From positions 26,290-90,289 of the forward strand of contig JAHLLH010000011.1 of assembly GCA_020444265.1 (NCBI GenBank): DNA of 64,000 nt. The letters run 5' to 3'. Each line of letters begins with the position of its first letter. Within the stretch, counting starts at the first letter, position 1. The notes beneath the pieces are model-generated. The model made no database searches, was not told where the DNA came from, and saw only the letters and a program-made list of their open reading frames with translations. Positions 15,617-38,881 of this stretch are shown one piece after another. Origin of the DNA: a bacterium (GTDB lineage: Bacteria > Electryoneota > Electryoneia > Electryoneales > Electryoneaceae). The position numbers were made by a program, and so were the translations under genes.

Positions 15617-16768
15617 CTACTTCACAATCACCGCACGCTTCACCTGGCTGTGGGGACCAGCCTCGAGACGAACAAAATAGATCCCGGTAGGAAGTCCGAC
15701 AGCATTCCAGCTCAGCTTGCCCGTCGTGTTGGTCACATCCCACTGCCGTACCTGACGACCCAATACATCGAACAGTTGCACCGAAGCCTCGCCACGCAAC
15801 GGCAGGCTGTAGCCGATGGTCACCATCGCATTGGCCGGAACCGGCCAGACACTCAGCTGGGATTCGGCGGGTTGGGCAACCCCATCTTCAGCCACCCCCA
15901 ACAGGGCATCGGTCGGGAAATAGGTGGCGACGGGACGATGGTCCGAGATGTAGTTCTCGTACTGACTGTATTCATCCTCCAGGTGCAGCACCTCTGTTTC
16001 GCCATACTCGGTGAAGTCAGCATAGAGAGCGTCTGTCACCATGAGGTGATCGTAGAAGAACCCCGCAGGAATCCAGGTGCCCCCATCGCCACCACCATCA
16101 ACGATCGGCAAGGTCAGGAAGTGAAAATCGGGGTCATCCAGCATCGGGGTGAAAACATTGGTGCTCGAGGGATCATCCAAATCGTCATTCCAGTCGCCGA
16201 CGAGCATCCAACGGTCATTGCCATCGTCGATCTGACGACCTACCCAGGCATGCAGCGAATCGACCGCTTCGGCGCGACGGGCCCGGTCATCGGAGTCATT
16301 CCGGCCCGCTTTCAGATGGAAAACCATGAAGTTGAAGGAAAGGGTGTCCTCCGCTTCGACCATGGTCACCGGCACCACCAACGGCGCACGTGGGAAAGGA
16401 TAGGAGTAGCTGGTGTAGATCTCGTAAGAGCTGCCAACCTCCACCTTGTCGGCATCGTAAAGGACCGCGTGACGTAAGCCATAGTAGTCCTCACCAATCA
16501 CCGTCCCCCACCCTCCGGCATTGGACGCGACCGAACGTAGCGCATCATCGTCCGTAATCTCCTGGCAGCCAATCAATTCGATCTCGAGATCATTGATCAT
16601 CAGGGAAAGAGCGTTGACAGTCTGGGCCGCATCGGGGAACTGACGGATGTTCCAGGTGGCAACATCAAAGGTGAGGTCGCTGCCATGCTGCTCGACAAGC
16701 TGCGCAGAGACTGGCAGGGCAACGGCAATCAACATCAGAACGGCGAGAATGAGACGATTTTGTGCCAT
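15617..16768 (-). CDS. Secreted endonuclease/exonuclease/phosphatase (EEP) family protein with a T9SS C-terminal sorting domain
   Basis: Signal peptide plus EEP motifs (WNIRQF, GDWN, SDHRPV). The C-terminal tail GIYFVRLEAGPHSQVKRAVIVK is a Por_Secre_tail. Confidence 0.8.
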   Translation of the reverse strand: MAQNRLILAVLMLIAVALPVSAQLVEQHGSDLTFDVATWNIRQFPDAAQTVNALSLMINDLEIELIGCQEITDDDALRSVASNAGGWGTVIGEDYYGLRHAVLYDADKVEVGSSYEIYTSYSYPFPRAPLVVPVTMVEAEDTLSFNFMVFHLKAGRNDSDDRARRAEAVDSLHAWVGRQIDDGNDRWMLVGDWNDDLDDPSSTNVFTPMLDDPDFHFLTLPIVDGGGDGGTWIPAGFFYDHLMVTDALYADFTEYGETEVLHLEDEYSQYENYISDHRPVATYFPTDALLGVAEDGVAQPAESQLSVWPVPANAMVTIGYSLPLRGEASVQLFDVLGRQVRQWDVTNTTGKLSWNAVGLPTGIYFVRLEAGPHSQVKRAVIVK

Positions 16769-16984: not shown

Positions 16985-17092
16985 GGCCGGATTCTTGTAC
17001 CAGGCAAAAAAAGGGGCCCGAAGGCCCCTGACACATTATAGATGGATCGCCCGGCATCCGCCGGACCTCGCCGGATTCAAGAATCCGGCCTA
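16985..17092. repeat. MITE-like palindromic element, copy R2 (left terminus partly degenerate)
   Basis: It shares GGCCGGATTCTTG...AAGGGGCC-CGAA-GGCCCCTGACAC...CGCCGGATTCAAGAATCCGGCCTAC with R1. Confidence 0.55.
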
Positions 17093-17099
17093 CGCTCAT

Positions 17100-19181
17100 C
17101 TACTTCATCAACACCATCTTGCGGACCTTGCTGACGTCGCCGGAGGTCAGCTTGTAGAAGTAGACTCCGCTGGGCAGATCATCCGCGAGGAAGGTGATGG
17201 TATGGTTGCCCGCGCTCATGCCACGTTCAACCAGTGTCGCCACTTCTCGTCCCAACAGATCATAAACCGCCAGCTTCACCTGCCCGGCCTGACGCAGGTT
17301 GAAAGCAATCTGCGTACTCGGGTTGAAGGGGTTCGGGTAATTCTGTCCGAGCTCGAACTGATCCGGCTGCAGTGTGTTGGAGTGGCCGACGCTGTTGTCG
17401 CCGAAGAAGCCATTCCACTGCCAATCATCCGGATCCACCCAGTAGCCGGTGGAATCCCGCATCATCGGATAGTTCACCTGCCACTGCTGCCGTTCCTCGA
17501 AGATGTCGATCATCATCTGTTTTGAGAGACGGTGATAGACCATCGGGTTCTCGAGGATTTCGCCAACCGGGGCTGAACTGGAGACACCAACACCCGGGTC
17601 CCGGTCGACCATGTAGAGCAGGTGCAGATAATCACCATGACTGGTCGGTGCGATCGAGGGGCTGATCTCGCTGCGGCTGTCGCCGGGAGGCGCACCGCCA
17701 CCTTCAGTCCAGATCGTATTGGTGATGTTCACACCCTTCGCCCAACGAAGACCATTAAACTCGCCGGGGGGCGATGCAGAAACGTAGATGTCGCCATTCG
17801 CCTTGATTCCGCCTTGCCCGTAATCGGCTGTATCCGGTGCGGAGCTGATCTTACGGTAGGTACACCAAAGGATGCCCGTTTCGGGATCGTGGTAGAGGCT
17901 TGGGCGGTCGACCAGGCTGCCCCAGGCTTCCGATTGACCAACATCAAACTCGCTGTTCTCGTCAATCTGGGAGTAGACAGGATTACCACTTTCGTCCTGC
18001 ATCCAGTGGTAGAGACGGGCAGCATAGTACCGTGTATCCTCGAGGCCATCATAGATCGCCGACGTAAACGCGACATGAAGCTGATCATCACTGTCGTAAA
18101 TCACACTCCCATCGGTGTAGGGACGAAGTGTATCACCCAGGGCGGCGAGGGTGTCCGGGTAAAGATCCGGGTCCGGGCCGATGTGCGAGGTCACTTCAAT
18201 CGGGTTTTCCTGGTCCCAGGTCGCGCCCGCGTTGGTAGACTCGAAGACCCAGAAGTCATTGTTCCACTGAGTCCCCTCTCCGTCGCCGACCACTTCACCA
18301 ATTGTCGATTCACGCGCCATCACCAACCCGATCGCCACACGCTGTCCATCCGACGATGTAGTGATATCGCCCGAAATATTCATGTCTCCATCGGTGATCA
18401 GCACCTGCAAATCGTTGGGCGTCGCCTCGGCAAATTCCGGCACATTTGGATCGTACAGCCAACGCATGTAGGTGATTTCCATCGGATCGGCGTTATCGTC
18501 ACGCTGGTCATGCGAGATGATGTGCGCGTGCTGGGTCGCCGGGCTGAAGGTCGAATGGGGCCAGATGTGTGCACGTGTCCCATACTCTGGCGCAGCGTAC
18601 ATGTCATAGAAACCGGTCACAAACTCGCTTTCCAACGCAATCACACTCGCCGTCTCAGCACCCGCCGTCGCATCGTAATGGAAGGTGGGATAGGTGACAC
18701 CAGCAGCGTAATCAAAGGCGATCGTCGTATATCCGCTGCGATTGCCGGTATCGACATCACCTGTGGTTTCGTGGATGTACCAGCCAGCGCCATCGTCCGT
18801 CAGACGGACAAACTGAACGTGACGGCTGTTGCTGGTCACGCTGCCATAGAGCTTCGTAAAGATGATGTGCACTTCGGCTGGATTCTCGGCGGCATCACCG
18901 GGGAAGAAGCCAATCATACGGCTCACCTGCCCGTTGTGCTGCTGGTCCCAGTAGGAGGTGCCGACAATCATCGTGTCGCCGATGATCTCGTTCAGTTCGT
19001 TATGCGACCGGAATGATCCAGTCCAGGGGGCGAGGTCAGGGTTGATCACCACATCGTGCGAACCATCCTCCGATGCGGTAGGGGTGCGTTCGTACTCCAC
19101 CGGCGAGCCGAACGCTACCAGACCGATCAATAAAACCCATACCAATGACAATACCAGTCGTTGCATGTTCCCTCCGTACAT
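17100..19181 (-). CDS. BNR/Asp-box repeat secreted protein with T9SS C-terminal sorting domain, paralog 1 of 5
   Basis: Signal peptide. The conserved N-terminal motif is DTMIVGTSYWDQQHNGQVSRMIGF. Asp-box motifs are present (STNAGATWDQEN). The conserved C-terminal tail is FNPSTQIAF...YDLLGREVATLV...SGVYFYKLTSGDVSKVRKMVLMK. Confidence 0.8.
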   Translation of the reverse strand: MYGGNMQRLVLSLVWVLLIGLVAFGSPVEYERTPTASEDGSHDVVINPDLAPWTGSFRSHNELNEIIGDTMIVGTSYWDQQHNGQVSRMIGFFPGDAAENPAEVHIIFTKLYGSVTSNSRHVQFVRLTDDGAGWYIHETTGDVDTGNRSGYTTIAFDYAAGVTYPTFHYDATAGAETASVIALESEFVTGFYDMYAAPEYGTRAHIWPHSTFSPATQHAHIISHDQRDDNADPMEITYMRWLYDPNVPEFAEATPNDLQVLITDGDMNISGDITTSSDGQRVAIGLVMARESTIGEVVGDGEGTQWNNDFWVFESTNAGATWDQENPIEVTSHIGPDPDLYPDTLAALGDTLRPYTDGSVIYDSDDQLHVAFTSAIYDGLEDTRYYAARLYHWMQDESGNPVYSQIDENSEFDVGQSEAWGSLVDRPSLYHDPETGILWCTYRKISSAPDTADYGQGGIKANGDIYVSASPPGEFNGLRWAKGVNITNTIWTEGGGAPPGDSRSEISPSIAPTSHGDYLHLLYMVDRDPGVGVSSSAPVGEILENPMVYHRLSKQMMIDIFEERQQWQVNYPMMRDSTGYWVDPDDWQWNGFFGDNSVGHSNTLQPDQFELGQNYPNPFNPSTQIAFNLRQAGQVKLAVYDLLGREVATLVERGMSAGNHTITFLADDLPSGVYFYKLTSGDVSKVRKMVLMK

Positions 19182-19423
19182 GTCCTGCCCGAATCCTCGG
19201 ATTCAGGCTATCCAGCGGGGATAGCGACCCTTCTCGACCGGCTCATCGTGTGGGGGTCCATCATAAGAGAAACGGGGATGGGAGGAAGCGGACGCTTGGT
19301 TTCGTCCACTTCCCCTCATCCCCGGCTCTGGGGTCTTGCACAGGTAAAATAGGGGTCCGTTACGGCATAGAGCAACGCATGCGGCACATTCAACAAAAGT
19401 TACCCGGGTCAATAAAAAAGGGG

Positions 19424-19449
19424 CTGCCGAAGCAGCCCCATTGAATCGC
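19424..19449 (-). terminator. Intrinsic terminator downstream of BNR paralog 2
   Basis: On the minus strand, a GGGGCTGC-TTCG-GCAGCCCC hairpin followed by a U-tract. Confidence 0.6.
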
Positions 19450-19464
19450 TCAAGAAAGGCGACG

Positions 19465-21513
19465 TTACTTCATGAGGATCATCTTGCGGACCTTGGTGGA
19501 TTCACCAGAGGTCAGCTTGTAGAAGTAGACGCCACTGGGCAGGTCGTCGGCCATGAAGCTGACCTGGTGGCTGCCCGCACCCATCGCACGGTTCACGAGG
19601 GTGGCCACTTCACGACCGAGCAGGTCGTAGACCGCCAGCTTGACGTTTGCAGACTTGTTCAGGCTGAAACGAATCTGGGTGCTCGGGTTGAAGGGGTTCG
19701 GGTAGTTCTGCTCAAGCTGGAACTCGTTCGGCTTGAGGGTGCCGTCACCTTCAACACTGTTGTCACCGAAGAAGCCGTTCCAGGCCCAGTCATCCGGATC
19801 CTGGAAGAAGCCGGTGCTGTCGATGTGCATCGGGTAGTTCGGCAGCCAACCGTCGAACATGTCGATCAACTCCTGCTTGTTCGCCTTGTGATAGACGACG
19901 GGGCAGAGGGTGGCTTCGGTGTCGGTGGCACGATCCGGCCAGGTGTCGATGACGTACATGAAGTGCAGGAAGTCGCCATCGCTCTGCAGCGCAATGCTGG
20001 GATCGATTTCGGACTGCGCATCACCCGGGGCCATCGCATCGTCCGACAGCCATTTGGTGTCGGTCAGGTTGATCGGCTGGGTCCAACGCAAACCATTGTA
20101 CTCTCCGGGGGGAGAAGCCGTCAGGTAGACTTCACCACAGGCATACTCACCGGCAAAGTCGGTGGTGTCCGGGTTGTCGCCAAAGTTACTCGTGCGACGA
20201 TAAATCGCCCAGAGAATACCGGTGTCCGGGTCGCTGTAAAGGCTCGGACGGTCAGCGGTTTCACCGAAGACCTCGGGACGGCCCATGAAGCCTTCCGTAC
20301 CATCGGCCATCAGGGTGTACATGCCGCTTTCACGGTCCCAATGGAAGATGCGGCTGGTGTAGGTAATCGTACCCTGGAACTCGAAATATTCCGGGGTCGT
20401 GAAGGCCGCATGCAGGTTGTCTTCGAAGTCATACAGGACGGTTCCGTCCATGTAGCAACGGAGGGTGTCCTTGTTCGCCGCGGTGGTGTCGGGCAGCAGG
20501 TCGCCATCCGGCGGAATCCACTGGGTAACATCAAGCGGCTCGCCCCAGGTGGCGCCACCATCGGTGGACTCCCACAGCCAGAGGTCGTTGTCCCACTGAG
20601 TCGCCTCTTCACCTTCACCGATGGTGTAGAAACGCGGCATGGTTTCCGTATAGGCAACCATCGAACCGTCGCTGCTGGTGTGGATGTCGGACGAGTTGTT
20701 CATGCCGACTTCCGTCATCAGCACCTGCTGATCGTTCGGGACGGCAGCGGTCAGGACATTGTTTGCCGGGTCGTACAGCCAACGCATGTAGTACTTCTTG
20801 GTCGCATCGGCGGCACCAGCCGGGAAGTCGCTGTTGATCTGATGGATGTAGTTCTCCGGGCCGAAGGTGCTGCGCGGGAAGAGAACATCGTTGTCCGTCG
20901 AAGCCGGATCCGGCGCGGCGAACAGATCGAAGAAACCAGGCACGAAGGTGGATTCAAGCGCCACTTTCGGTGCGTACGGTGTGCCGTCGCCCGAATCGTG
21001 GTGGAAGGTCGGGAAGGCTTTGTTGGTGGCAACATCAACACCCAACGTACCAAAGCCGGAACGACCCGAACCATTGTCCACACCATCCGTACCGATCACA
21101 TTGACGACCGGAGCATCGGTGGACGCATCGGCAACCTGGATGTACATGATGTGACGCGACGCACTTGCCGCATCAAAACCACGCATATAAATCATGTGGA
21201 CCATGTCCTGTTCGGGGACATAGCCAATCATACGCCCGTTCTGGGCGTTGTGCTGAATGTCGTACCAGGTGTAGCCGACATGCAGCGTATCACCCACCGC
21301 CTCATCAAGAGGATTCGGCACGGGGTTACGATACTGAACATCCTGTGTCTTCTGAAGTGCTTCAGTGCCGGTCAACGGCATGTCGTTGGAAATCGGCGCC
21401 TTTGCATCAAATGCGGACGCGACACCAGCGACGAGGAGCACCATCAGGGAGACCATTAACGCTTTACGCATACTCCCTCCAAATAACAACGTGAGTTTGT
21501 TTTTACTTCCCAC
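19465..21513 (-). CDS. BNR/Asp-box repeat secreted protein with T9SS CTD, paralog 2
   Basis: GDTLHVGYTWYDIQHN...; STDGGATWGE; C-terminal ...VYFYKLTSGESTKVRKMILMK. Confidence 0.8.
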   Translation of the reverse strand: MGSKNKLTLLFGGSMRKALMVSLMVLLVAGVASAFDAKAPISNDMPLTGTEALQKTQDVQYRNPVPNPLDEAVGDTLHVGYTWYDIQHNAQNGRMIGYVPEQDMVHMIYMRGFDAASASRHIMYIQVADASTDAPVVNVIGTDGVDNGSGRSGFGTLGVDVATNKAFPTFHHDSGDGTPYAPKVALESTFVPGFFDLFAAPDPASTDNDVLFPRSTFGPENYIHQINSDFPAGAADATKKYYMRWLYDPANNVLTAAVPNDQQVLMTEVGMNNSSDIHTSSDGSMVAYTETMPRFYTIGEGEEATQWDNDLWLWESTDGGATWGEPLDVTQWIPPDGDLLPDTTAANKDTLRCYMDGTVLYDFEDNLHAAFTTPEYFEFQGTITYTSRIFHWDRESGMYTLMADGTEGFMGRPEVFGETADRPSLYSDPDTGILWAIYRRTSNFGDNPDTTDFAGEYACGEVYLTASPPGEYNGLRWTQPINLTDTKWLSDDAMAPGDAQSEIDPSIALQSDGDFLHFMYVIDTWPDRATDTEATLCPVVYHKANKQELIDMFDGWLPNYPMHIDSTGFFQDPDDWAWNGFFGDNSVEGDGTLKPNEFQLEQNYPNPFNPSTQIRFSLNKSANVKLAVYDLLGREVATLVNRAMGAGSHQVSFMADDLPSGVYFYKLTSGESTKVRKMILMK

Positions 21514-21956
21514 AGTTCCCTACAAAAATCGGTCAAGCTGGTTTGTTCCTCCGGCTCGTTGTTTGTTTATCTCTCCCACACACTTTTTATCAATCCACGT
21601 TTTCCCCTAATGGAAACGCGATCAAATGCCTTGTAAACAGGTGAATCGTGTAGAGTACATCGAGAACTCCGCGCATGCAATATCAGGCGGAGGCTCGGAC
21701 CATCTTTCAAGCCTTGCGGGTAGGCTCTCGGTTGTTCCCTCTCTTTAATATATCGAAAACAACCCCCCTCTTCTACCTTCAAAACACTTCTCCCCCTCCT
21801 CTCCTCATCAGATAGAGCCCCAAATATCCCCTAACTCCGGCAATAAAAGCCTACTACACATCTTCCCTGCCCGATTCTGAACCAGGGGTACCGTTGTGAT
21901 ACAATCTCAAAGAAGAGAAGATAGAAATGATCTTACTACAGGATTAACAAGACATT

Positions 21957-21982
21957 AAAAAAGGGGCCGCCGAAGCAGCCCC
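21957..21982 (-). terminator. Intrinsic terminator downstream of BNR paralog 3
   Basis: AAAAAAGGGGCCGC-CGAA-GCAGCCCC (minus-strand hairpin followed by a U-tract). Confidence 0.55.
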
Positions 21983-22048
21983 TCTATTACTGGCTACCCA
22001 CGGACAATCCATGGACTGTCCTGGGCATAACAAGCGCCACGGCGATGA

Positions 22049-24103
22049 TCACTTCATCAGGATCATCTTGCGAACCTTCGAGACATCACCGGAGGTCAGC
22101 TTGTAGAAGTAGACACCGCTGGCCAAGTCGCTCGCGAGGAAGGAGACGCTGTGGTTTCCGGCGCTCATCGAACGATTCACCAGGGTCGCCACCTCACGGC
22201 CCAACAGGTCATACACCGTCAAGGAAACCTGGCCCTGGGCATGCAGCGTAAAATTGATCTGCGTGCTCGGGTTGAAGGGGTTCGGATAGTTCTGGTTCAG
22301 CTCGAACTGATCGGGCTGAAGGGTACGTCCCTCGGGGACCGACACATCCCAGAAACCATTCCATTCCCAGCCATTCGGGTCCTCATAGTACCCGGCACTG
22401 TCGATGTGCATCGGGTAATTGACGACCCATTCAGCATTCTCCTCGAATTGGGCCATCAGTTCCACTTTCGGGACACGATGATAGACCATCTGGTTCAGGG
22501 TCGCGACACCTTCTTCCTGGCCTGCGACTGCCGAAATGCCCGCCTCATAGTCCATGGTGTAGAAGAGATGCAGGTAAGGACCATCGCTGTTGTAGGCCAT
22601 GCTCGGGTCACGTTCTGTCTGGCTTTCACCCGGTTCCAGAGCATTTTCCATCAAGCGGGTATCGGTCACATTCACGCCTTTAGTCCAACGTAACCCGTTG
22701 TCCGGAGATGCGGCAACATAGACATCGCTGTTCGCATAGCCGGCCGCAGTCGCATCCAGCGGCCCACCATTCAGCGTGTCCCCCGGTTCCCCATACTGGC
22801 ACCAGCTCGCCCAGAGGACGCCTGTTTCCTCATCCTTGTAGAGGTTGGCATGGCACACGGTCAGCTCCCACGCCGCGGGCTGGGCACCATTCCAGAAGTC
22901 ACCATCCGCAATCTGGGAATAGACCTCGTTCTCGCTGTCCCAGTGCCAGAGACGACCATTCAGCGAGGATGCACCTGCGCTGCGGAAGAAGTCGAGGCTG
23001 AGGGTGTTGAATGCCGTATGAATCGTGTTGTCACCATCGATGATAACATCGACTTCGGAGTAGGCACGCAAGGTGTCCTTGTTGGCGGCTGAGGTGTCCG
23101 GCAGCAAGTCACCATCCGGAGCGATGAAACTGGTCACATTCTGGGGATTCTCCCAGTCCCAGGTATCGCCCCCATCATCGCTGGTCCACAGGTAAATATC
23201 ATTGTTGCTCTGGGATGCGCGGGATTCTGCCCAGTCATCTGGTCCTTCGCCCTGGAGGAAACGGCTCACCGATCCGGCAACAGCGATCAGGCTGCCATCG
23301 CTGTTGGATGCCGGAATAGTGGATAGAACGGCGGAATAGGTGGTGACAAACATGCTGTTCGCCCCGCCGGGTGTAGCGTTCGTCCAAAGACTACTCACGG
23401 GATCGTACAAAGCACGATGGTAGTAGACATTCTCCGAAATCAGATCCTCATAGCCATTGCTGATGATGTGCACGTACAGGCCACCATCATAGCGGGTCAC
23501 CACATGTTGCGGCCAGATAAAATCGCCACCATCAGGACGGGGGAGATCGTACGGATCGAAAAAGCCCGGCACGAAAATCGATTCGGTCATCAGGCTGGAG
23601 AAATAGCCGCCATTCGGGTCCGGCTGGTGCATCATGACGTAGGGCGCACCCTCTGTTGGGTCGAGACTGATCACCGGGTACCCGGCACCAGACACTCCCA
23701 CCTGCGCCGGGCTGCCTTCCTGACGGGTGACATCCCCCGCTGCATCGACAAACAGCTTGTAATAGGAGACGTTCCGAGACCCGGTTTCGGTCGGATGCTG
23801 GGTCCAGGTCAGATGAATGACCTTGTTGTCCTCGTCGCTATCATGGACCGCGATCAGGCGGGTAAACCCGGCATTGTGCTGCTGATCGCGCCAGTTGCTG
23901 CTGAGGTGCAACGTGTCGCCGACCATATCGTCCAGCTCATCGCTGAAGAGAAACGGCCCCTCCAGGCCCTGCCCTGACGGCGTGCCATAGCCGGCATTGT
24001 TGTGGTTCTTTTCGGCGGACCAGGCCGGAGTCTGGCTGGCTGGCGATGGTCCAGCAACCAGAACCATCCCCAGTATCAATACAATCCCTAACACGTTCTT
24101 CAT
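22049..24103 (-). CDS. BNR/Asp-box repeat secreted protein with T9SS CTD, paralog 3
   Basis: GDTLHLSSNWRDQQHN; SDDGGDTWDWEN; SPDNGLRW; C-terminal ...VYFYKLTSGDVSKVRKMILMK. Confidence 0.8.
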   Translation of the reverse strand: MKNVLGIVLILGMVLVAGPSPASQTPAWSAEKNHNNAGYGTPSGQGLEGPFLFSDELDDMVGDTLHLSSNWRDQQHNAGFTRLIAVHDSDEDNKVIHLTWTQHPTETGSRNVSYYKLFVDAAGDVTRQEGSPAQVGVSGAGYPVISLDPTEGAPYVMMHQPDPNGGYFSSLMTESIFVPGFFDPYDLPRPDGGDFIWPQHVVTRYDGGLYVHIISNGYEDLISENVYYHRALYDPVSSLWTNATPGGANSMFVTTYSAVLSTIPASNSDGSLIAVAGSVSRFLQGEGPDDWAESRASQSNNDIYLWTSDDGGDTWDWENPQNVTSFIAPDGDLLPDTSAANKDTLRAYSEVDVIIDGDNTIHTAFNTLSLDFFRSAGASSLNGRLWHWDSENEVYSQIADGDFWNGAQPAAWELTVCHANLYKDEETGVLWASWCQYGEPGDTLNGGPLDATAAGYANSDVYVAASPDNGLRWTKGVNVTDTRLMENALEPGESQTERDPSMAYNSDGPYLHLFYTMDYEAGISAVAGQEEGVATLNQMVYHRVPKVELMAQFEENAEWVVNYPMHIDSAGYYEDPNGWEWNGFWDVSVPEGRTLQPDQFELNQNYPNPFNPSTQINFTLHAQGQVSLTVYDLLGREVATLVNRSMSAGNHSVSFLASDLASGVYFYKLTSGDVSKVRKMILMK

Positions 24104-24285
24104 TCAATCCCTCCTTGCGGGGCCTTGCGGAAGTTTCCCGTTGCCCACGGACCATCGTCCAGATGGACGGCCATCCCTGTACCCCGGGTTGAAAAGCGGG
24201 GCCTCGGTTTTCTCGGTACCTGAATAGTAAAACAATCGGGCGAAATCGGGCAACAGAATCTGCCGAAAACATGGAAAAACAGACG

Positions 24286-24311
24286 AAAAAAGGGGCTGCC
24301 GAAGCAGCCCC
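24286..24311 (-). terminator. Intrinsic terminator downstream of BNR paralog 4
   Basis: AAAAAGGGGCTGC-CGAA-GCAGCCCC. Confidence 0.6.
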
Positions 24312-24359
24312 TTTGAAAATCTGGATACCCGCGGCCAGTCCACTGGACTGTCCTGGGCA

Positions 24360-24383
24360 TAACCATCGCCATGGCGATGGTTA
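24360..24383. repeat. Perfect 24-bp palindrome TAACCATCGCCATGGCGATGGTTA overlapping the stop codon of BNR paralog 4
   Basis: Read directly from the sequence. The TAA stop is the complement of 24381-24383. Confidence 0.6.
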
Positions 24384-26522
24384 CTTCATCAGGATCATCT
24401 TGCGGACCTTCGAGACATCACCGGAGGTCAGCTTGTAGAAGTAGACACCGCTGGCCAAGTCGCTCGCGAGGAAGGAAACCGTGTGGCTTCCTGCGCTCAT
24501 CGGACGGTTCACCAGGGTAGCTACCTCACGGCCCAGCACATCATAGACCGTCAGCTTGACCGCACCCGCTGCCTGCAGGTTGAAGCTGATCTGCGTGCTC
24601 GGGTTGAAGGGGTTCGGGTAGTTCTGGTTCAGCTCGAACTGGTCGGGACGCAAGGTGGTCGTCGGTTCGTCAACAGAAGTCAGCCCATCCCAGGCCCAAT
24701 CCTCCGGATCAACCCAATAATCGGTCGAGTCAACGTGGATCGGGTAGTTGCGGATCCACTCGGCCTGCTCATTCATCACATCGATGATGTCGCTCTTCAG
24801 GACGCGCTGGTAAATCAGCTGGCCTTCCGTTTGGACACCTTCTTCCCAGGTGTAGGAACGGCCACCATCACGATCCTGCAGGTAGAAGAGATGCAGGAAG
24901 TCGCCGTTTACATTCTCGGCAAGGCTGGGGTGGATTTCACTACGGCACTCGCCAGCCGCGATACCACCCGCCAAGGCTGTTTCGAGGCTGGTGTCACGTG
25001 TATTGGTCACATTAACCGGCTTGGCCCAACGCAACCCATCCGGGCTGAGAGAAACATAGATGTCTGCCAAGGCGTAGTTGCCACCTGTAGAACTGGTGGA
25101 CTGGGCAAAATCGACAGGCGTCCAGAATTCCTCGCCATCTTCCGTGTAATGCAAGGTGTCATCCACTTCACCATACTGCGACCAGGCCGCCCAGACCCAA
25201 CCGGTGTTCTCGTCCACACCGAGCTGGCACTGGTTGGTAAAGGTCTGCCAGGCACCCGGGACCACGCCATTCCAGATACGGTCCTGCATCTGGACACAGA
25301 GGCTGTCACGGCTGTTCCAGTACCACATGCGCGCGGAGTAGGAGGATTCACCCTCGGAACGGACGAAATCAATGAACGGGGTGGTGAAGGTGACATGCAC
25401 AATACCTTCATTGTCCACCAGGCAGTTCACGTCCGCATAAACACGCAACGTGTCACCATTCGCAGCGAGAGTATCTTCCGCCGAACCGGGCAGCAGATCG
25501 AGGTTCGGATCGATAAAATCAGTGATGTTCAGCCCGTTTTCCCAATCCCAGGTTGCTCCGCCATCCTCACTCGTCCAGAGGTAGACATCGTTGCAGGTCT
25601 GGGAGATACGGGACCCTTCGAAGAAGCCGTTATCCTCGCCATCTTTCAGGTGACGGCTGACAGGAAGCACAATCGCGACAACACCCGATTCGTCATTCGC
25701 CGAAACCGCACCCTCGACATCTTCGTTGTACTCGGAGACGATCACCTGCGGGTTGGTGCCGGGTGTGGCGTTCTCGTACGAAGGATTGTCATCCACCCCG
25801 TTGATCTGCATCCTGTTGTAGAAGGTGTACTTATCGAACGGGTTGTCCTCTTCACTGGAGAAGTTGACGGTGTGGGCATAGAGCTGGCCTTCCACTTCCT
25901 GCAGTGCCATCGAGGGCCAGACCGCCTGAGCGGTGTTGTTGTACCGCTCGACCCACTGGTAATCGAAGAAACCTTCGACCCACTGGGATTCACGCATCAC
26001 AGACGGGTCCCACAACGCATCTCCGAACCCATTCTGGGAATGGAGCCCGATGAAGGGGTTGGTCGCCGAATCAATGTCGAGGACCGGGTAGCCGTCCAGG
26101 GCCTCACCAACATTAGACGGAAGCCCATTGACAACAAGTTCACCCTCATCATTTTCGAAAATCATGATGTAGTGTGTCAGACGACCGGCGCTTATTGTCG
26201 CATGCTCCTGCCATGTCAACTTCACCACACCATCCGGGTATGCCGGATCATCTTCGGTGTAGGCCAGGAATCGTGTGTTTGAGCTTGTGCCAAGCTGGTC
26301 ACGCCAGGTGGTAGAGATCGCGAGGGTATCCCCCATCATCTCATCCAACTCACTCGGCATGAAACTGCGAAGCGGGATGCCATTACCCGCAGGCGGGTTC
26401 CCCGATGGATCGGCGAGACGATTGAACTGGTCGGTGCCAGTTGGTGCAGGGGCAAATGGGGCTGCAACCGCCGTCCCACTGATCAGCAATAACGCGATCA
26501 GCGTCATCTGTACAACTTTCAT
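24381..26522 (-). CDS. BNR/Asp-box repeat secreted protein with T9SS CTD, paralog 4
   Basis: GDTLAISTTWRDQ; SEDGGATWDWEN; SPDGLRW; C-terminal ...VYFYKLTSGDVSKVRKMILMK. Confidence 0.8.
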   Translation of the reverse strand: MKVVQMTLIALLLISGTAVAAPFAPAPTGTDQFNRLADPSGNPPAGNGIPLRSFMPSELDEMMGDTLAISTTWRDQLGTSSNTRFLAYTEDDPAYPDGVVKLTWQEHATISAGRLTHYIMIFENDEGELVVNGLPSNVGEALDGYPVLDIDSATNPFIGLHSQNGFGDALWDPSVMRESQWVEGFFDYQWVERYNNTAQAVWPSMALQEVEGQLYAHTVNFSSEEDNPFDKYTFYNRMQINGVDDNPSYENATPGTNPQVIVSEYNEDVEGAVSANDESGVVAIVLPVSRHLKDGEDNGFFEGSRISQTCNDVYLWTSEDGGATWDWENGLNITDFIDPNLDLLPGSAEDTLAANGDTLRVYADVNCLVDNEGIVHVTFTTPFIDFVRSEGESSYSARMWYWNSRDSLCVQMQDRIWNGVVPGAWQTFTNQCQLGVDENTGWVWAAWSQYGEVDDTLHYTEDGEEFWTPVDFAQSTSSTGGNYALADIYVSLSPDGLRWAKPVNVTNTRDTSLETALAGGIAAGECRSEIHPSLAENVNGDFLHLFYLQDRDGGRSYTWEEGVQTEGQLIYQRVLKSDIIDVMNEQAEWIRNYPIHVDSTDYWVDPEDWAWDGLTSVDEPTTTLRPDQFELNQNYPNPFNPSTQISFNLQAAGAVKLTVYDVLGREVATLVNRPMSAGSHTVSFLASDLASGVYFYKLTSGDVSKVRKMILMK

Positions 26523-26759
26523 GGTTACCTCGTGCTTTTCCCTCTTTCCCTATCCAATGGATGTAGAGGCCTCCCTCAAGGCCACACATACTCGTAACGT
26601 TTGTACGGGATGAGGATTTCCGGCTCACTCTGCGGGGGTACGACTCATTGTTCATCATCAAAATACCCCCAAACCCCATCATTCGCAAGCGGCTCAAGCT
26701 CTCTTCCTACGGATTCCCATCAGCCACGCAATTCGTGACACGGCACGTTTCCAGAATAG

Positions 26760-26784
26760 AAAAAGGGGCCGCCGAAGCAGCCCC
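26760..26784 (-). terminator. Intrinsic terminator downstream of BNR paralog 5
   Basis: AAAAAGGGGCCGC-CGAA-GCAGCCCC. Confidence 0.55.
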
Positions 26785-26796
26785 TTACTATCCAGA

Positions 26797-26820
26797 TAAC
26801 AATCGCCATGGCGATTGTTA
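26797..26820. repeat. Perfect 24-bp palindrome TAACAATCGCCATGGCGATTGTTA overlapping the stop codon of BNR paralog 5
   Basis: Read directly from the sequence (coordinates +/-1). It differs from the paralog-4 copy only at symmetric positions (C/G to A/T). Confidence 0.55.
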
Positions 26821-28905
26821 CTTCATCAACACCATCTTACGGACCTTGCTGACATCACCCGACGTGAGTTTATAGAAATAAACACCACTTGGCAGATCGT
26901 CAGCCATGAAGCTGATGCTGTGACTACCTGCAGCCATCGCACGATTTGCAAGCGTGGCGACTTCACGACCGAGTACATCATAGACCGCGAGCTTGACGTT
27001 CCCCGGAGCGTTCAGCGCGAAGCTGATCTGCGTGCTCGGGTTGAACGGGTTCGGGTAGTTCTGGTTCAGCTCGAACTGCTCGGGACGCAGGTTGGTCGCA
27101 TCGTCAACAGAACCGCCAACAAAGGGATTGCCTTCCCAGGCCCAGTCGTTCGGGTCGATGTACATATCCGTCGAATCGACGTGCAAGGGATAATTGCGAT
27201 GCCAGGCTTCGTTCGCGACAAACATGTCGATCAGTTCCTGCTTCGGCACACGGTGGTAGATCTGCGGGTTGTCCGTTGCAGCACCGGATCCTTCATCCGC
27301 GATCGGTGCCTGGATGCCGCCATCACGATCCATCGTGTAGAAGAAGTGCAGGTAGTCATCCCCATCCGGGCTGACCATGCTCATTTCACGTTCACCTTCG
27401 CCTTCACCGGAAGGAATCGCACCGCCGGTGCCGCTGGTGTTGGTGATGTTCACACCTTCCGTCCAACGCTTTCCATTGTCTGGAGAGGCGGAGACCCAGA
27501 TCTCAGCGTTGATGTAGTGGGCAGCATTAGCATCGGCAGCCCAGCCACCTTCAACCGTATCCGTCTCAACACCGTATTGAACCCAACTTGCCCAGAGAAT
27601 GCCTGTAGCATCGTCCTTCTGAATCAGGGGCGAGTCAACGATCAACTCCCACGCCGGTGCATAGCCGGTGAACCAGCTCAAGCCATCCGCGAATTCGCTG
27701 AAGGTCTGGTCCTGATCATTCCAATAGAAGCAACGGCCACCACGTGAGCTGGCGCCGGTGGAACGGTAGTAGTCAAGCATCAATACGTTGAACGCAGCAT
27801 GCAGAACATCATCCTGGTCATACTGCAGGTCGATGTTGGTGTAGGCGCGCAGAGTATCCATATTCGAACCGGTTGTGTCGCCCGGATCGAGTTCCACAGG
27901 CGCGATGAAATCGGTCATGTTAATGGGGTTGTCAAAATCCCAGGTCACGCCGGCATCTGTGCTGGTCCAAAGGTAAATGTCGTTGTTGCTCTGCGAAGCA
28001 CGGGTATCTTCCCAAGAGGAGGGACCCTCGCCCTGCAGGAACCGACTTGCGGTCTGACCGAGGGTGACCAGGGAACCATCATCTGACGCTGCCAACGCAC
28101 CGGACAGGTTCATCGCAACTTCAGTAACCAGGCGCTGATTGATACCGTCCGGCATCGAAGAGACTGCCAGCGAATTCACAGGATCCCACTCTGCACGGTG
28201 GTAGAAAAGCTTTGTATCGTCGGTATCATAGCCGTTGATGAGGGTGTGGAAATAGAGCGTCCCATCATGGGTGGCTGTCACCATACGGGGCCAAAGCCCT
28301 TCGACACCTGCGTAGTGCGGGATGTCATAGGCCTGGAAGAAGCCAGGTACGAAAGGTGACTCAGAGCCGATCCTGCTTGAATAAGCGTAATCACCGGTGC
28401 CAGGAGCATGGTAGTTGATGTACGGCGCCCCGTTGACAGGATCGACGTGGAGTTCCTGGTAGGCTGACCAACCTTCCGTGTTGACACTCGACCCATTAAA
28501 ATCACTGTCCAGGTAGGGCGCACCCTCTTCGAAGAGAATTTTCACATACCTCGAGTCCGATGTACCATCTGCGGAAGCGCGGTAGCACCAGCTTACCTGC
28601 ACGGACTGGTCATCACCTTCCCCATGAACTGCAATCATGCGGCCAATGGTACCATTGTGCTGCATATCGCGCCAAGTGGTGCCGACCCACAGAGTGTCCC
28701 CAACCTGCTCATCCAGCTCATTGTGATGAGCATAGGGTACATCCACGCTCGACTCAGTTGGAGTCGTGGAATGCCAGATTTCCTGATCAGGCGTCGATTT
28801 CATCGCCTGTTCCGGCAATGCATAGGCTGAACCTGCGATGCCAACCATGAGCACAGCCGCTATCAACCAACCCTTTACAACCTTCATCTCTCTCTCCTTT
28901 TGCAC
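26818..28905 (-). CDS. BNR/Asp-box repeat secreted protein with T9SS CTD, paralog 5
   Basis: GDTLWVGTTWRDMQHN; STDAGVTWDFDN; SPDNGKRW; C-terminal ...VYFYKLTSGDVSKVRKMVLMK. Confidence 0.8.
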   Translation of the reverse strand: MQKEREMKVVKGWLIAAVLMVGIAGSAYALPEQAMKSTPDQEIWHSTTPTESSVDVPYAHHNELDEQVGDTLWVGTTWRDMQHNGTIGRMIAVHGEGDDQSVQVSWCYRASADGTSDSRYVKILFEEGAPYLDSDFNGSSVNTEGWSAYQELHVDPVNGAPYINYHAPGTGDYAYSSRIGSESPFVPGFFQAYDIPHYAGVEGLWPRMVTATHDGTLYFHTLINGYDTDDTKLFYHRAEWDPVNSLAVSSMPDGINQRLVTEVAMNLSGALAASDDGSLVTLGQTASRFLQGEGPSSWEDTRASQSNNDIYLWTSTDAGVTWDFDNPINMTDFIAPVELDPGDTTGSNMDTLRAYTNIDLQYDQDDVLHAAFNVLMLDYYRSTGASSRGGRCFYWNDQDQTFSEFADGLSWFTGYAPAWELIVDSPLIQKDDATGILWASWVQYGVETDTVEGGWAADANAAHYINAEIWVSASPDNGKRWTEGVNITNTSGTGGAIPSGEGEGEREMSMVSPDGDDYLHFFYTMDRDGGIQAPIADEGSGAATDNPQIYHRVPKQELIDMFVANEAWHRNYPLHVDSTDMYIDPNDWAWEGNPFVGGSVDDATNLRPEQFELNQNYPNPFNPSTQISFALNAPGNVKLAVYDVLGREVATLANRAMAAGSHSISFMADDLPSGVYFYKLTSGDVSKVRKMVLMK

Positions 28906-29142: not shown

Positions 29143-29973
29143 TCACCCGACCAATTTGCCTGCCAGGTTCATCATTCCGGTTACGATCGGTCCGCCGAAC
29201 ATGTAGACCGTCCACGCACCCACGGCAAGGGCTGTCCCGAAGGGGATTTGTGCTTCTTTCACCGACCCTCTGGATGCCTGGGTCGCGTAGGCCCAGATCA
29301 GGGTCGCGATCAGGGCGATCACGGCGGAGAAGAGCATGGTCAGGATTAACATCATGGGCGTCATATAAAGCGCAAACGCCACAGTCATTGTCACATCCCC
29401 ACTCCCAAGCGCCTCTCTCTTCCGCAGCACAAACCGTGCAATCAGGTAGATCAGGGTGAAGAAGATAGCGGCGATGGCCGCAGAAATTAACGGGTCGAGC
29501 AGGTAAGCCAGACCACCGCGCAGGAAGGCGATCAGCAGTCCAAACAGGGCCATCGGAAGGACAATCTGGTCTGGCAGGGTACGGGTTTCGAAATCGATCA
29601 CGGCAAGGGCAATCAAGTGCCAGCCCAGGATAATCCCGCCAACCGTATCCCAAGTCATCCCGTATCGCAGAAAAGCCACTACGGCAACCAGGCCACCGAG
29701 GAATTCAACCAGCGGATAGCGGGGTTTGATGGGCCAACCGCAGGTCCGGCAACGTCCCTGTAAGAAGAGGTACGAGATCACCGGAATGTTTTCCCACGGG
29801 CGTATCGGTGTCTTGCACTGCGGACAGCGACTGGCAGGCAGTACAATCGATTCCGCACGCGGAATGCGGTGAATGATCACGTTTAAAAAACTGCCGACCG
29901 CCAGGCCAACGATCCCAGCAAAGATCGCGACGAGTGCGGTCGGCAGTGTATTCACTAGTTCCTGAACGCCCAT
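29143..29973 (-). CDS. pilD: Prepilin peptidase / N-methyltransferase (A24 family)
   Basis: GSFLNVIIHRIP...CPQCKTPIRPWENIPVISYLFLQGRCRTCG zinc-binding motif; a polytopic membrane protein. Confidence 0.9.
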   Translation of the reverse strand: MGVQELVNTLPTALVAIFAGIVGLAVGSFLNVIIHRIPRAESIVLPASRCPQCKTPIRPWENIPVISYLFLQGRCRTCGWPIKPRYPLVEFLGGLVAVVAFLRYGMTWDTVGGIILGWHLIALAVIDFETRTLPDQIVLPMALFGLLIAFLRGGLAYLLDPLISAAIAAIFFTLIYLIARFVLRKREALGSGDVTMTVAFALYMTPMMLILTMLFSAVIALIATLIWAYATQASRGSVKEAQIPFGTALAVGAWTVYMFGGPIVTGMMNLAGKLVG

Positions 29974-29997
29974 GATTCTCCGAACCGTTCAGCCGGT

Positions 29998-31251
29998 TTA
30001 GCCAAGACCGGCGCGCATAACACGACCGATCTGGAAAATAGGCAGGTAAATCGAGACGACAATGACAATCACAACCGCACCGAGCATCATAATCATCAAC
30101 GGCTGAATCAAGCTCGTCATCCGTTCGACCACCGCTTCCACCTGCTTCTCGTAGAAGTAGGAGGCGCGTTCCAACAGACGGTCCATTTCACCAGTTTCTT
30201 CACCGGTCGCTACAAGCTGAACCATGGTCGAGGGGAACACACCGGTTTTCTTCAGCGCCACTGAAATGGCGAAACCATCCCTGATCATAGTTTTAACATC
30301 ATCCAGCGCCTTCTTGAACACCCGGTTTCCAACCACCTTTTGACAGTGGTTGACCGATTCAAGCACCGGGACACCTGCACCCATCAGGATGCCGAATGTC
30401 TTGGCGAAACGGGTCATCATGCTGTCTTGATGGAGCTGGCCGAGAACCGGGAACTTGAGACGGAAGCTGTCGTAAATCAGCCCGCCTCGTTCGGTCAGCG
30501 TAAGAATCCAGCCGACAATGAAGACAACTATGGCCAAGCTGGCAAACTGGAAGAAGTTTTCACTTAATATCTGGCTCAAACCGACCAGCAGACGAGTCTG
30601 GAGAGGCAGACGCGCACCGAAGCTGGCATAAATGTCGGTAAACCGCGGGACAATGAAGACCAGCAACCCGGCTAGAATACCGAACATGAAGATGATGACG
30701 ATGGTTGGATAGGTCAACGCGGAAATCACTTTCCGGCGTGTATCGGCCATCGACTCAAGGAAATCACTGAGCTGCTCGAGAACGACATGCAACGAACCGG
30801 AAATCTCACCGGCATTCACCAGGGCGACAAACAGGTTGTCAAATACACCCGGGTGCTGTGCAAGAGCATCAGACAGCGCTTTGCCTCGCTTCAGGTCGTT
30901 GGCGATTGCCGCCAGGGTCTTCCTGAACCGGGGGTGACGCTCTTCCTGCATCAGGTTCGCAATCGACTTCTCAATGGTCAAACCGGCAGAGAACATCGTT
31001 GAGAGCTGGCGTGTGAAGAAGACCAGCGTCTGCAACGGCACCGCCGTACGCATCTTGTAAATCGTGGTTGAGATCTGATCGACGATCGACGCACTATTTG
31101 CCTGATCTGCGATTTTGATCTCACGCAGGGAGACAATCTTCGCCCCGCGTTTCGTCAACTGACTCCAAGCCGCCTCATAACTGGCGGCGCGCAAACGGTC
31201 TTCCTTCCGCGTGCCATCCGGTTCTGTGACGATGTACGAAAAATTCGGCAT
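29998..31251 (-). CDS. pilC: Type IV pilus inner-membrane platform protein (GspF/PilC family)
   Basis: There are two GspF-type domains (…LSTMFSAGLTIEKSIANL…, …FAKTFGILMGAGVPVLESV…). The protein has three TM segments and is ~417 aa. Confidence 0.85.
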   Translation of the reverse strand: MPNFSYIVTEPDGTRKEDRLRAASYEAAWSQLTKRGAKIVSLREIKIADQANSASIVDQISTTIYKMRTAVPLQTLVFFTRQLSTMFSAGLTIEKSIANLMQEERHPRFRKTLAAIANDLKRGKALSDALAQHPGVFDNLFVALVNAGEISGSLHVVLEQLSDFLESMADTRRKVISALTYPTIVIIFMFGILAGLLVFIVPRFTDIYASFGARLPLQTRLLVGLSQILSENFFQFASLAIVVFIVGWILTLTERGGLIYDSFRLKFPVLGQLHQDSMMTRFAKTFGILMGAGVPVLESVNHCQKVVGNRVFKKALDDVKTMIRDGFAISVALKKTGVFPSTMVQLVATGEETGEMDRLLERASYFYEKQVEAVVERMTSLIQPLMIMMLGAVVIVIVVSIYLPIFQIGRVMRAGLG

Positions 31252-31275
31252 AACCGCGCTCCGTCCTGGCTTACG

Positions 31276-32997
31276 CTACTCTGTGGTCACGCGCAATACT
31301 TCTGCAAGAGTGGTAATGCCGCGTTCCGCCTTGCTGATCCCGTGCAGGCGAAGCGTCTCCATCCCTTGCTCAATCGCGGTGTCGCGGATCTCGTCCTGGC
31401 TGGCATTTTCGAAAATTAAACGGCGAATCTCAGGGGATACCTGGAGAATTTCGAAGATGCCTGTACGACCGTAGTACCCGGTGTCGCGGCAATGCACACA
31501 GCCGCGCCCCTTGTACCATGTCTTTTTCTTGCCTTCTTCCGGATCGATGTCAACGTACTCAAGCTCCCAATCCTTCGGAGTGTACTCTTCCTTACAGTGC
31601 GTACAGATGGTACGCACGAGACGCTGGGCCATCACCAACAATAGCGAAGAACCTGCCAGGAAGGGTGGAACACCGATATCGATCAAACGGGTAACTGTGG
31701 ACGGCGCATCGTTCGCGTGAACGGTCGAGAACACAAGGTGACCCGTCAGCGAGAACTTGACCGCGATATCTGCTGTTTCTTCATCTCGAATTTCACCGAT
31801 GAGCAGGCGGTCAGGGTCCTGACGCAGAATCGACCGGAGGCTCGCGGCGAAGGTCAGCCCGATCTTCGGCTTGACCTGCACCTGGTTAATCCCGTCCAGG
31901 TGATATTCGACCGGATCCTCGACCGTGGTGATGTTGTCCTCGGTGCTCATAATTTCCTGCAGCGAGGCATACAAAGTGGTCGATTTACCCGAACCGGTCG
32001 GTCCGGAAACAATGATCATGCCGTAAGGCTTGATGATGTTCCGCTTGAAGATCTTGAAGTGATGATCTTCAAAACCGAGGGTGGAAAGGCTGAACCCGAA
32101 GCTGCCCTTGTCGAGCAGACGCATGACGACCTTTTCGCCATTCACAGTCGGCAGGATCGAAACACGAACGTCCACCTCGCGCTCCTTGCTGCGGATGGTG
32201 AATCGACCATCCTGCGGCAGACGCTTTTCGGCGATGTTCAGCTTCGCAATAATCTTGATACGGGCAACAATACCGCTGTGGGCGTTTTTCGGCGGCTCCA
32301 TGACGCTGGTTAGCACGCCGTCTACACGGTACCGTACTTCGACGTTGTTTTCTTTCGGCTCAATGTGGATATCCGTTGCACGCTCTTTCATCCCTTCGCC
32401 GATGATCATATTCACCAGCTTGATGATTGGCGCATCTTCATCCGCTTTGGCCTTGGTCATGTCGACCATGCCCTCGTCGCCCTCTTCCGACTCGGCGAAG
32501 AAGTGCAGGTCTCCGATGACCTCTTTGGTCTCTTTCTGCTTACGGATACGGACATAGAGCTGTTCGATGGCGCGGCGAATCCCCTGGGGTGCTGCCATCG
32601 CAACCTGGAGTTCAATCCCTTCACCGGCGATCTTGTTCAGGTTGTCAATCGCGATGATATCATCCGGATCGGACATCGCCACCCAGAGAGTGTTATCCTC
32701 TCGACGAACGGCGAGCAGAGTGTTTTCTTTCGCAAACTCTTCCGGAACGGTTCTCACCACGTCTTCACGAGATTCGAGCAATTGCTCGTTCGTGAAGTAT
32801 CGATACCCCATTTGCTTGGAAAGCCCGAAATAAACATTCTCCTCGACCGCGAACCCGAGAGCGACAAGACTTTCGCCTAACTTCAGGTTCTTCTCGGTGG
32901 CTTCATCAAGGCTCTTACTGAGCTGATCTTCGTTGATGAAGCCCTCTTCGAGGAGGATTTGCCCCAATTTCGGTGCAGCGCCGAAATCCGCCATCAT
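31276..32997 (-). CDS. pilB: Type IV pilus assembly ATPase (GspE/PilB family)
   Basis: The N-terminal GspE_N domain is followed by Walker A VSGPTGSGKSTTLYA, an Asp box, and a tetracysteine CTHCKEE...CVHC motif. Confidence 0.9.
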   Translation of the reverse strand: MMADFGAAPKLGQILLEEGFINEDQLSKSLDEATEKNLKLGESLVALGFAVEENVYFGLSKQMGYRYFTNEQLLESREDVVRTVPEEFAKENTLLAVRREDNTLWVAMSDPDDIIAIDNLNKIAGEGIELQVAMAAPQGIRRAIEQLYVRIRKQKETKEVIGDLHFFAESEEGDEGMVDMTKAKADEDAPIIKLVNMIIGEGMKERATDIHIEPKENNVEVRYRVDGVLTSVMEPPKNAHSGIVARIKIIAKLNIAEKRLPQDGRFTIRSKEREVDVRVSILPTVNGEKVVMRLLDKGSFGFSLSTLGFEDHHFKIFKRNIIKPYGMIIVSGPTGSGKSTTLYASLQEIMSTEDNITTVEDPVEYHLDGINQVQVKPKIGLTFAASLRSILRQDPDRLLIGEIRDEETADIAVKFSLTGHLVFSTVHANDAPSTVTRLIDIGVPPFLAGSSLLLVMAQRLVRTICTHCKEEYTPKDWELEYVDIDPEEGKKKTWYKGRGCVHCRDTGYYGRTGIFEILQVSPEIRRLIFENASQDEIRDTAIEQGMETLRLHGISKAERGITTLAEVLRVTTE

Positions 32998-33089
32998 GGA
33001 CCCTATCCCTTCTTTCTACTGGAACGGGGAGTGACCCTCGCGGGCCACTCCCCGCCCTTCAACTTACGTCATGTTGCGAACGACAGATC

Positions 33090-37356: not shown

Positions 37357-37394
37357 GTATTAACAGGAGGACGGCAGAAGCCGTCCGCGAGGAC

Positions 37395-38819: not shown

Positions 38820-38881
38820 GGGAGAATCTCCTCCAGGCTCAATCTCTATGGCACTCAGTCCTTGTTCACGAAATCGCTGGC

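Follow-up and report, generated by a model that had tools for sequence, protein, structure and literature searches.

Lyases and hydrolases of the families PL42 (formerly GH145), PL24 and PL25 cleave uronic-acid glycans with a His that acts as base and acid, a helper His, a Tyr and an Arg that serves as neutralizer. Structurally, the three families are seven-bladed BNR_4 propellers that use the residues His, His, Tyr and Arg (PMC8377490). In Porphyromonas gingivalis, genes for cargo of the type IX secretion system (T9SS) swap segments by homologous recombination, and parts of these genes are thereby kept alike (PMC5266723). Here, we describe five intact minus-strand genes that lie in tandem at positions 17100-28905 of a 64-kb stretch of bacterial DNA (the whole of which is called the window below). 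We read them as old, diverged paralogs of one uncharacterized family, whose products would be T9SS-exported, seven-bladed propellers that are most likely enzymes or binders and probably act on glycans. The genes would be monocistronic, and their 3′ ends form a cassette homogenized by conversion. We consider this account, taken as a whole, reasonably likely.

The genes, in order of transcription, are as follows.

26818-28905, minus strand: g5, paralog 1, 695 amino acids (aa) as an open reading frame (ORF)
24381-26522, minus strand: g4, paralog 2, 713 aa, with the most divergent body
22049-24103, minus strand: g3, paralog 3, 684 aa, identical to database protein P0001; the protein that was modeled
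19465-21513, minus strand: g2, paralog 4, 682 aa as an ORF
17100-19181, minus strand: g1, paralog 5, 693 aa as an ORF

Thus, five consecutive paralogs of 682-713 aa are present, as in the original prediction, which gave a range of 680-715 aa. Three of the genes seem to start somewhat further inside the ORF. The start of g5 is probably M7 at 28887, giving 689 aa, and that of g1 is probably M6 at 19166, giving 688 aa. For g2, M15 at 21471 is the likely start, with GGAGGGAGT just upstream. A GGAGG-like site is found ahead of each of these inner starts. Database proteins P0005 (689 aa) and P0011 (688 aa), which are encoded on the same 133,710-bp contig as P0001, have the lengths of g5 from M7 and of g1 from M6, in agreement with the shorter starts.

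All five proteins align from end to end. Their bodies are 34-47% identical in pairwise comparisons, which is lower than the 40-60% that had been estimated outside the tail, and the last 90 residues are 73-88% identical. Each protein has the same domain plan, consisting of a signal-peptide-like start, a body of ~490 aa, a conserved linker of ~55 aa and a T9SS type A C-terminal domain. An N-terminal motif had been proposed as common to the array. Its G-D-T part is indeed invariant in all five paralogs, but the QHN part is found in only four, and R-M-I is exact in three, with R-L-I and R-F-L in the remaining two.

The near-identical T9SS tail anticipated from the sequence is borne out by curated models. 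At the extreme C-terminus of every one of the five proteins, Pfam PF18962 (Por_Secre_tail) scores 40-45 bits against a cut-off of 27, and NCBIfam TIGR04183 scores 45-49 bits against a cut-off of 23. The T9SS type A sorting domain segments are as follows.

26821-27057, minus strand: sorting domain of g5
24384-24620, minus strand: sorting domain of g4
22052-22288, minus strand: sorting domain of g3
19468-19704, minus strand: sorting domain of g2
17103-17339, minus strand: sorting domain of g1

The final 20 residues of the five proteins read VYFYKLTSG[DE][VS][ST]KVRKM[IV]LMK. Three further T9SS cargo genes occur in the window, at 1898-3868 (with FG-GAP), 15617-16768 (with Exo_endo_phos) and 50705-52435, and their tails are unrelated in sequence to that of the array. 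We had considered that the uniform tail might be a genome-wide T9SS signature, and rejected this idea because of these unrelated tails. Near-identity of the tail is thus specific to the array family.

At the other end, the five N-termini, read by eye, have a start with K or R, a hydrophobic stretch of 12-17 residues and a small-x-small end (for example, MKVVQMTLIALLLISGTAVA/AP), and none has a lipobox Cys. They look like typical signal peptides, putatively of the Sec type. Together with the tail, these features suggest that the five proteins are secreted. After export, the propeller would be either released or anchored at the surface. The window contains eight genes with a T9SS C-terminal domain, so a working T9SS is likely. 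Given that at least three of these are cargo genes other than those of the array, the organism probably uses the pathway widely.

The body of the proteins had been described as BNR-like or sialidase-like, an assignment that the model searches did not reproduce. No match to BNR, BNR_2, BNR_4 or Sortilin-Vps10 exceeds the gathering threshold in any of the five proteins. Among the curated models of Pfam and NCBIfam, none covers residues of about 60-600, and only the T9SS tail passes. The sole Pfam match in a body is BNR_4 in g3 (E 0.043, 13.6 bits against a cut-off of 27.3), and NCBIfam model NF045728 matches the Asp-box region of g2 with E 0.065. The original prediction had also listed sialidase-like Asp-boxes (SxDxGxTW). 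We found one canonical box per protein rather than several (308-315 in g3), and the g1 version, STNAGATW, matches only when the pattern is relaxed. A second box of the SPDNGLRW type (466-473 in g3) is degenerate in each protein, and five blades have no box.

The five proteins belong to a larger family. A word-indexed search of 5.8 billion proteins gave only 13 relatives. An exhaustive profile search of 1.84 billion representatives of 50% identity clusters gave 893 at E≤1e-3, of which 227 had E≤1e-30. Por_Secre_tail is present in 59 of 66 diverse family members. In the bodies of these 66 members, sub-threshold matches to BNR (19 members), BNR_4 (7) and BNR_2 (4) are the only recurrent signal, and no Pfam model covers the body in any family member examined. 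In the source records, the proteins carry no annotation beyond "T9SS type A sorting domain-containing protein" or "hypothetical protein", and the labels of the metagenome-assembled genomes from which they come include Electryoneota, Calditrichota and Bacteroidota.

Comparisons with the sequences in the PDB point to a distant kinship. A profile of the five paralogs yielded only insignificant sialidase matches (E 0.2-7). With a profile of 80 members, GH33 sialidases were found (best 4bbw_A, E 1.5e-4), and nearly all of its 42 weak matches are sialidases or BNR proteins, each match consisting of one blade and its Asp-box. On the basis of these searches, we read the body as a family that has no model of its own, is remotely related to the BNR clan and does not belong to any described family.

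To establish the fold, we relied on predicted structures. An AlphaFold model of g3 that used 17 sequences was mediocre, with a predicted local distance difference test score (pLDDT) of 73.5. With 80 homologs, the AlphaFold2 model reached a pLDDT of 90.0 and a predicted TM-score of 0.83. This second model is confident and predicts the body to be a seven-bladed beta-propeller of the Asp-box type. The number of blades is independently shown by a seven-fold sequence repeat, [DG]G.hhh[H/W/A]hh[FWY], at g3 positions 97, 159, 212, 275, 362, 431 and 512. Neighbors of the fold in the PDB are listed with the value for each; they indicate likeness at the level of the fold only.

2z2n: virginiamycin B lyase, 25.3
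7ron: CylK, 24.6
3ow8: WDR61, 24.5
5mum: GH145/PL42, 354 residues aligned, 24.4
3vgz: YncE, 24.0
7esk: PL42, 22.4
5uam: PL25, 21.7

These data bear directly on the proposal that the array encodes true GH33-type sialidases, which was the lead of the original prediction. The proposal is consistent with the one canonical and one degenerate Asp-box per protein, with the GH33 matches of the 80-member profile and with a Foldseek search, in which sialidases were retrieved with E of about 1e-8. In that search, sialidases and GH32/GH43 enzymes had query-normalized TM-scores of 0.22-0.35 and a large root-mean-square deviation. On the other hand, the predicted propeller has seven blades where GH33 has six, and no six-bladed sialidase is among the top 60 PDB fold neighbors. 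We therefore disfavor this proposal and find it hardly credible.

The PL42, PL24 and PL25 neighbors raise a second possibility, namely that the proteins cleave polysaccharides as lyases or hydrolases akin to those of PL42/GH145, PL24 and PL25. The likeness of the modeled propeller to these enzymes is suggestive. However, no family member reaches the BNR_4 cut-off, and the family profile finds no PDB chain of these enzymes at E≤1. Identity to them is 10-12%, and generic WD40 propellers score equally well. In addition, the spacing of the family's Y228-x-R230 is unlike that of the lyases, which have Tyr(x15)Arg (for example, Y150/R166 in FoRham1). Membership in these families is thus quite improbable.

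Clues to function come from residue conservation, which we computed over 117 members with identity down to 25% (g3 numbering). D343 and D518 are conserved in 100% of the members, D356 and E497 in 98% and R346 in 97%. Slightly lower levels are seen for H212 and Y228 (95%), Y515 (94%), Q75 (93%) and H362 (91%), followed by D424 (89%), H159 (87%), and R110 and D302 (85% each). The R of R-M-I is R in 66% and K in 31%. For comparison, the catalytic site of GH33 comprises an Arg triad that includes the Arg of the RIP motif, a Tyr/Glu nucleophile pair and an acid/base Asp; R110, R346, Y515, E497 and D343 are residues of these types that the family conserves. Because this polar set is almost invariant across ~117 members at 25-45% identity, we favor a reading of the propeller as an enzyme or as a protein with a specific ligand-binding pocket. 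Apart from Ig-like spacers and the tail, almost all members have no domain other than the propeller, and the accessory domains of 26 long members do not include a second catalytic domain. In a few of the long members, CBM20, BACON_2, a Rha78A-type Ig domain or a GlgE N/S domain is present, which hints weakly at glycans. The propeller is the sole effector and would probably act on glycans, and the paralogs would differ in specificity. The five proteins are probably exported carbohydrate-active enzymes or binders, and the glycan-related function proposed for them earlier is plausible.

A bolder version of this idea is that the propeller body constitutes a new family of secreted carbohydrate-active enzymes (CAZymes), either hydrolases or lyases, that is confined to uncultured phyla of the Fibrobacteres-Chlorobi-Bacteroidetes (FCB) group (such as Electryoneota and Calditrichota). 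The paralogs would form a specificity series for a complex polymer, and their 3′ module would be maintained by conversion and matched to the same secretion machinery. We regard this version as unlikely.

By contrast, the proteins could lack catalytic activity and serve at the cell surface as adhesins, lectins or a coat, anchored to the outer membrane by the T9SS, in which case their divergence would reflect binding or antigenic variety. However, Asp, Glu, His, Arg and Tyr residues that are near-invariant at 25-30% identity are more typical of a catalytic site or a fixed ligand site than of binders that diversify. Moreover, the orthologous bodies of g5 and of copy 1 in a related array (on a contig we call L004) retain 69-81% DNA identity, which argues against rapid antigenic turnover. 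The surface-protein explanation is therefore somewhat unlikely, and we continue to prefer the reading as an enzyme or binder.

The history of the copies can be followed through the related arrays. In a neighbor-joining tree of the bodies, the copies of the window and those of L004, which has four, pair according to position (g5 with copy 1, g3 with copy 2, g2 with copy 3, and g1 with copy 4), and only g4 has no ortholog in L004. Because the bodies pair in this way, we take the duplications to be old. This result agrees with the earlier suggestion of functional diversification rather than recent duplication, at least as regards the age of the copies. The tree also separates two ancient types, one like g1 and g2 and the other like g3, g4 and g5, and both are already found in genomes with two copies. 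The copies in a more distant relative (L001) group together, which points to an independent expansion. The copy number depends on the lineage and is 2-5 or more.

The tails tell a different story from the bodies, in that a tree of the tails groups by genome. A similar discordance is seen in the DNA identity between neighboring copies.

g3 and g4: 53% in the body, 90-96% in the last ~290 nt, 82% past the stop codon
L004 copies 1 and 2: 58% in the body, 91-94% in the last ~290 nt, 89% past the stop codon
L004 copies 3 and 4: 57% in the body, 88-93% in the last ~290 nt, 90% past the stop codon

Between genomes, the relationship is reversed. In a sliding-window comparison of the DNA of g5 and copy 1 of L004, identity is 69-81% in the body and 59-70% in the tail, so these orthologs are closer in the body than in the tail. 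In agreement with this pattern, all five tails of the array have K...KVRKM, whereas those of L004 have T...QTRKM. The conserved unit also emerged as a repeat family, D1, with five repeats at a period of 2332-2584 nt. Each repeat is a 300-nt 3′ cassette comprising the end of the coding sequence and the start of the 3′ untranslated region (UTR), and the copies of g3 and g4 are 87% identical.

22012-22311, minus strand: D1 cassette, g3 copy
24344-24643, minus strand: D1 cassette, g4 copy

Because identity steps up in the last ~290 nt, runs past the stop codon and is reversed between genomes, we conclude that the sorting domain, 3′ UTR and terminator are a cassette homogenized by gene conversion between neighbors. 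In the other pairs of the window, tail identity is 71-77% and third-position identity is 44-64%. This lower tail identity indicates that conversion is episodic and occurs mostly between neighbors. Third-position identity between the window and L004 is ~45-65%, and synonymous sites look saturated. The bodies diverge while the 3′ cassette stays similar among neighboring copies.

The terminator is part of this cassette. At 22-70 nt past the stop of each gene, we found a G+C-rich hairpin with a UUCG loop, followed by a run of 5-7 U. A shared terminator design had been proposed for the array, and the hairpin is present behind all five genes, although that of g1 is shorter (GGGGCCTTCGGGCCCC). Behind g2-g5, the 20-mer GGGGCTGCTTCGGCRGCCCC with its T-run occurs in four copies and nowhere else in the 64 kb, where none would be expected. 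The predicted RNA hairpins of g2-g5 have energies of -19 to -22 kcal/mol and z of about -4.4 to -5.4.

26763-26786, minus strand: terminator of g5, GGGGCTGC-UUCG-GCGGCCCC plus U-run, -21.9 kcal/mol, z -5.1
24289-24314, minus strand: terminator of g4, -21.2 kcal/mol
21960-21985, minus strand: terminator of g3, -21.5 kcal/mol
19420-19439, minus strand: terminator of g2, -19.0 kcal/mol
17012-17029, minus strand: terminator of g1 (shorter), GGGGCC-UUCG-GGCCCC plus U7, -15.1 kcal/mol, z -1.9

One terminator per copy also occurs in L001 (ACAGGAGTTGC...GCAACTCCTGT) and in L004 (GGCAGGTC...GACCTGCC), with different hairpin sequences. That the layout is the same while the hairpin sequences differ argues for selection on termination behind every copy. 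A separate Shine-Dalgarno site and a separate strong intrinsic terminator accompany every one of the five genes, and monocistronic transcription of each gene is therefore most likely. Support for the claim of independent transcription units is good at the 3′ ends, where each gene has a strong hairpin, but the claim is an inference at the 5′ ends.

Further potential structures lie near the terminators. A 24-nt palindrome, TAAC[CA]ATCGCCATGGCGAT[GT]GTTA, occurs at 26797-26820 and 24360-24383, where it opens with the TAA stop of g5 and of g4, respectively, and there is a degenerate copy near 22030-22051. Located between stop codon and terminator, it might form an extra hairpin or possibly be a protein-binding site. 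Another hairpin is common to the 3′ UTRs of g4 and g3 (GCCCAGGACAGTCCA.TGGA.TG.CCG.GG). A 21-nt inverted repeat (16985-17005 and 17070-17090, 86% complementary) flanks the terminator hairpin of g1, and its pairing could enclose this hairpin in a longer stem that directly follows the stop codon of g1.

The spacers between the five genes measure 295, 277, 535 and 283 bp, in keeping with the predicted 270-540 bp. Apart from the 3′ UTR and terminator, the spacers of the window share nothing with one another in blastn comparisons. The spacer between g3 and g2 (21514-22048, 535 bp) is double the length of the others, has a G+C content of 0.47 versus ~0.56, and is purine-rich (GGAGAGGAGGGGGAGAAG); it has no family remnant, Rfam match or long ORF. 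Six-frame scans with hidden Markov models revealed no pseudogene remnants in any spacer, including the 535-bp one, and Rfam and tRNA scans revealed no RNA genes in the window. The spacers of L004 (9434-10000, 12086-12635, 14646-15226 and 17276-17661) are densely filled with several families of repeated hairpins (for example, TTCGGGCAGGTCCGAAGANCTGCCCGA and CCGCCAGATCTNCGGATCTGGCGG), which are like repetitive extragenic palindromic (REP) elements and are absent from the spacers of the window. On the plus strand, ORFs of 310-672 aa lie opposite the five genes (17622-19016, 19441-21459, 24483-26282 and 26815-27747). We judge these antisense ORFs to be shadows of the minus-strand genes.

Several observations weigh against parts of the account we favor. 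With regard to transcription, the spacers had been described as containing promoters, but a sigma-70 scan found no site in any of them, and in a blastn comparison of the window's spacers with those of L004, no block upstream of the genes proved to be conserved. Transcription may thus read through into the array from the pil genes that lie upstream of it, or from one copy into the next. With regard to export, the 64-kb window contains no gene for T9SS machinery (PorK/L/M/N, Sov/SprA, PorU or PorV). With regard to function, it is an assumption that the conserved polar residues form one pocket. Also, other long members of the family add P_proprotein, LVIVD, MAM or Ig-like domains, and so few of the accessory domains are associated with glycans and the picture is mixed.

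The array is flanked by the following genes, which provide context and do not belong to the family.

29143-29973, minus strand: PilD-like prepilin peptidase, at the end of a pilB-pilC-pilD block
15617-16768, minus strand: Exo_endo_phos-family protein, downstream of the array, with a T9SS tail unlike that of the array

When relatives from the FCB group were compared, the locus proved to be conserved. The pilB-pilC-pilD genes followed by 2-5 family copies are found at the same locus in six genomes (the window, L004 and L008-L011). In these six genomes, the order pilM...secretin, SLBB, Big_1, pilB, pilC, pilD is kept before the family copies (29143-41820 in the window). L004, an 83-kb contig from the Joint Genome Institute (JGI), has SLBB, Big_1, pilB, pilC and pilD and then its four copies. 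In L008-L011, pilB-pilC-pilD adjoins two or three copies, and the copy next to pilD is inverted. In the window, L008, L010 and L011, the array is followed by the Exo_endo_phos-T9SS gene. It is a more speculative idea that the adjacency of pilBCD and this secreted nuclease/phosphatase-family protein reflects one surface-associated module for foraging or uptake.

A 3.5-Mb contig (L001/L002) has at least five tandem copies, and pil genes were not seen in the part that was fetched. An ArgZ-like gene next to a T9SS-tailed FG-GAP gene is found in the window (1898-5061), at a distance of 12 kb from the array, and in L001 (20118-22109), where that distance is 8 kb. The wider neighborhood is thus partly syntenic even in the more distant L001. 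Elsewhere in the window, we noticed a 1070-aa protein with five PEGA domains (57713-60925), a 576-aa T9SS cargo protein that has no other Pfam domain (50705-52435), and, between the pil genes (41971-45331), a pair of ORFs that have no Pfam match (524 and 559 aa).

If the proteins are enzymes, they would add a sizeable CAZyme-like family, of ~890 clusters at 50% identity, for which there is no current model. Such a family would bear on the degradation of polymers by uncultured FCB bacteria of sediments and lakes. Otherwise, the array is a routine, fairly ordinary expansion of a secreted or surface-protein family. The array is also a clean natural case of modular evolution, in which the bodies have long been diverging and the export signal, 3′ UTR and terminator are kept uniform by local conversion. 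This matters wherever the age or orthology of paralogs is deduced from the C-termini of T9SS cargo.

Like known T9SS type A cargo of Bacteroidota, the array proteins carry a sorting domain of ~75 aa at the C-terminus, and their N-termini are signal-peptide-like. However, the host is an uncultured FCB-group member outside Bacteroidota, and the tail is family-specific and unusually constant (73-88%), unlike the tails of neighboring cargo.

With BNR/Asp-box propellers, the family shares the SxDxGxTW Asp-box in a blade loop, the similarity to a GH33 blade (E 1.5e-4) and the sub-threshold BNR, BNR_4 and BNR_2 matches. It differs from BNR and GH33 proteins in having seven blades rather than six, a single canonical box and no model at cut-off, and the arginine that may correspond to that of the sialidase RIP motif is not strictly conserved in the array family. 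The seven-bladed fold is common to PL42, PL24 and PL25, but the propeller of the family is larger (~490 versus ~380-420 aa) and has larger blades.

Tandem T9SS cargo families and recombination among them are already known, and it is the array family itself that is new, with no Pfam or NCBIfam model. In P. gingivalis, exchange affects adhesin domains and alleles between strains, and has been discussed as a source of antigenic variation (PMC5266723). In the array, by contrast, the converted tract consists of the sorting signal and terminator of tandem paralogs, while the bodies stay distinct.

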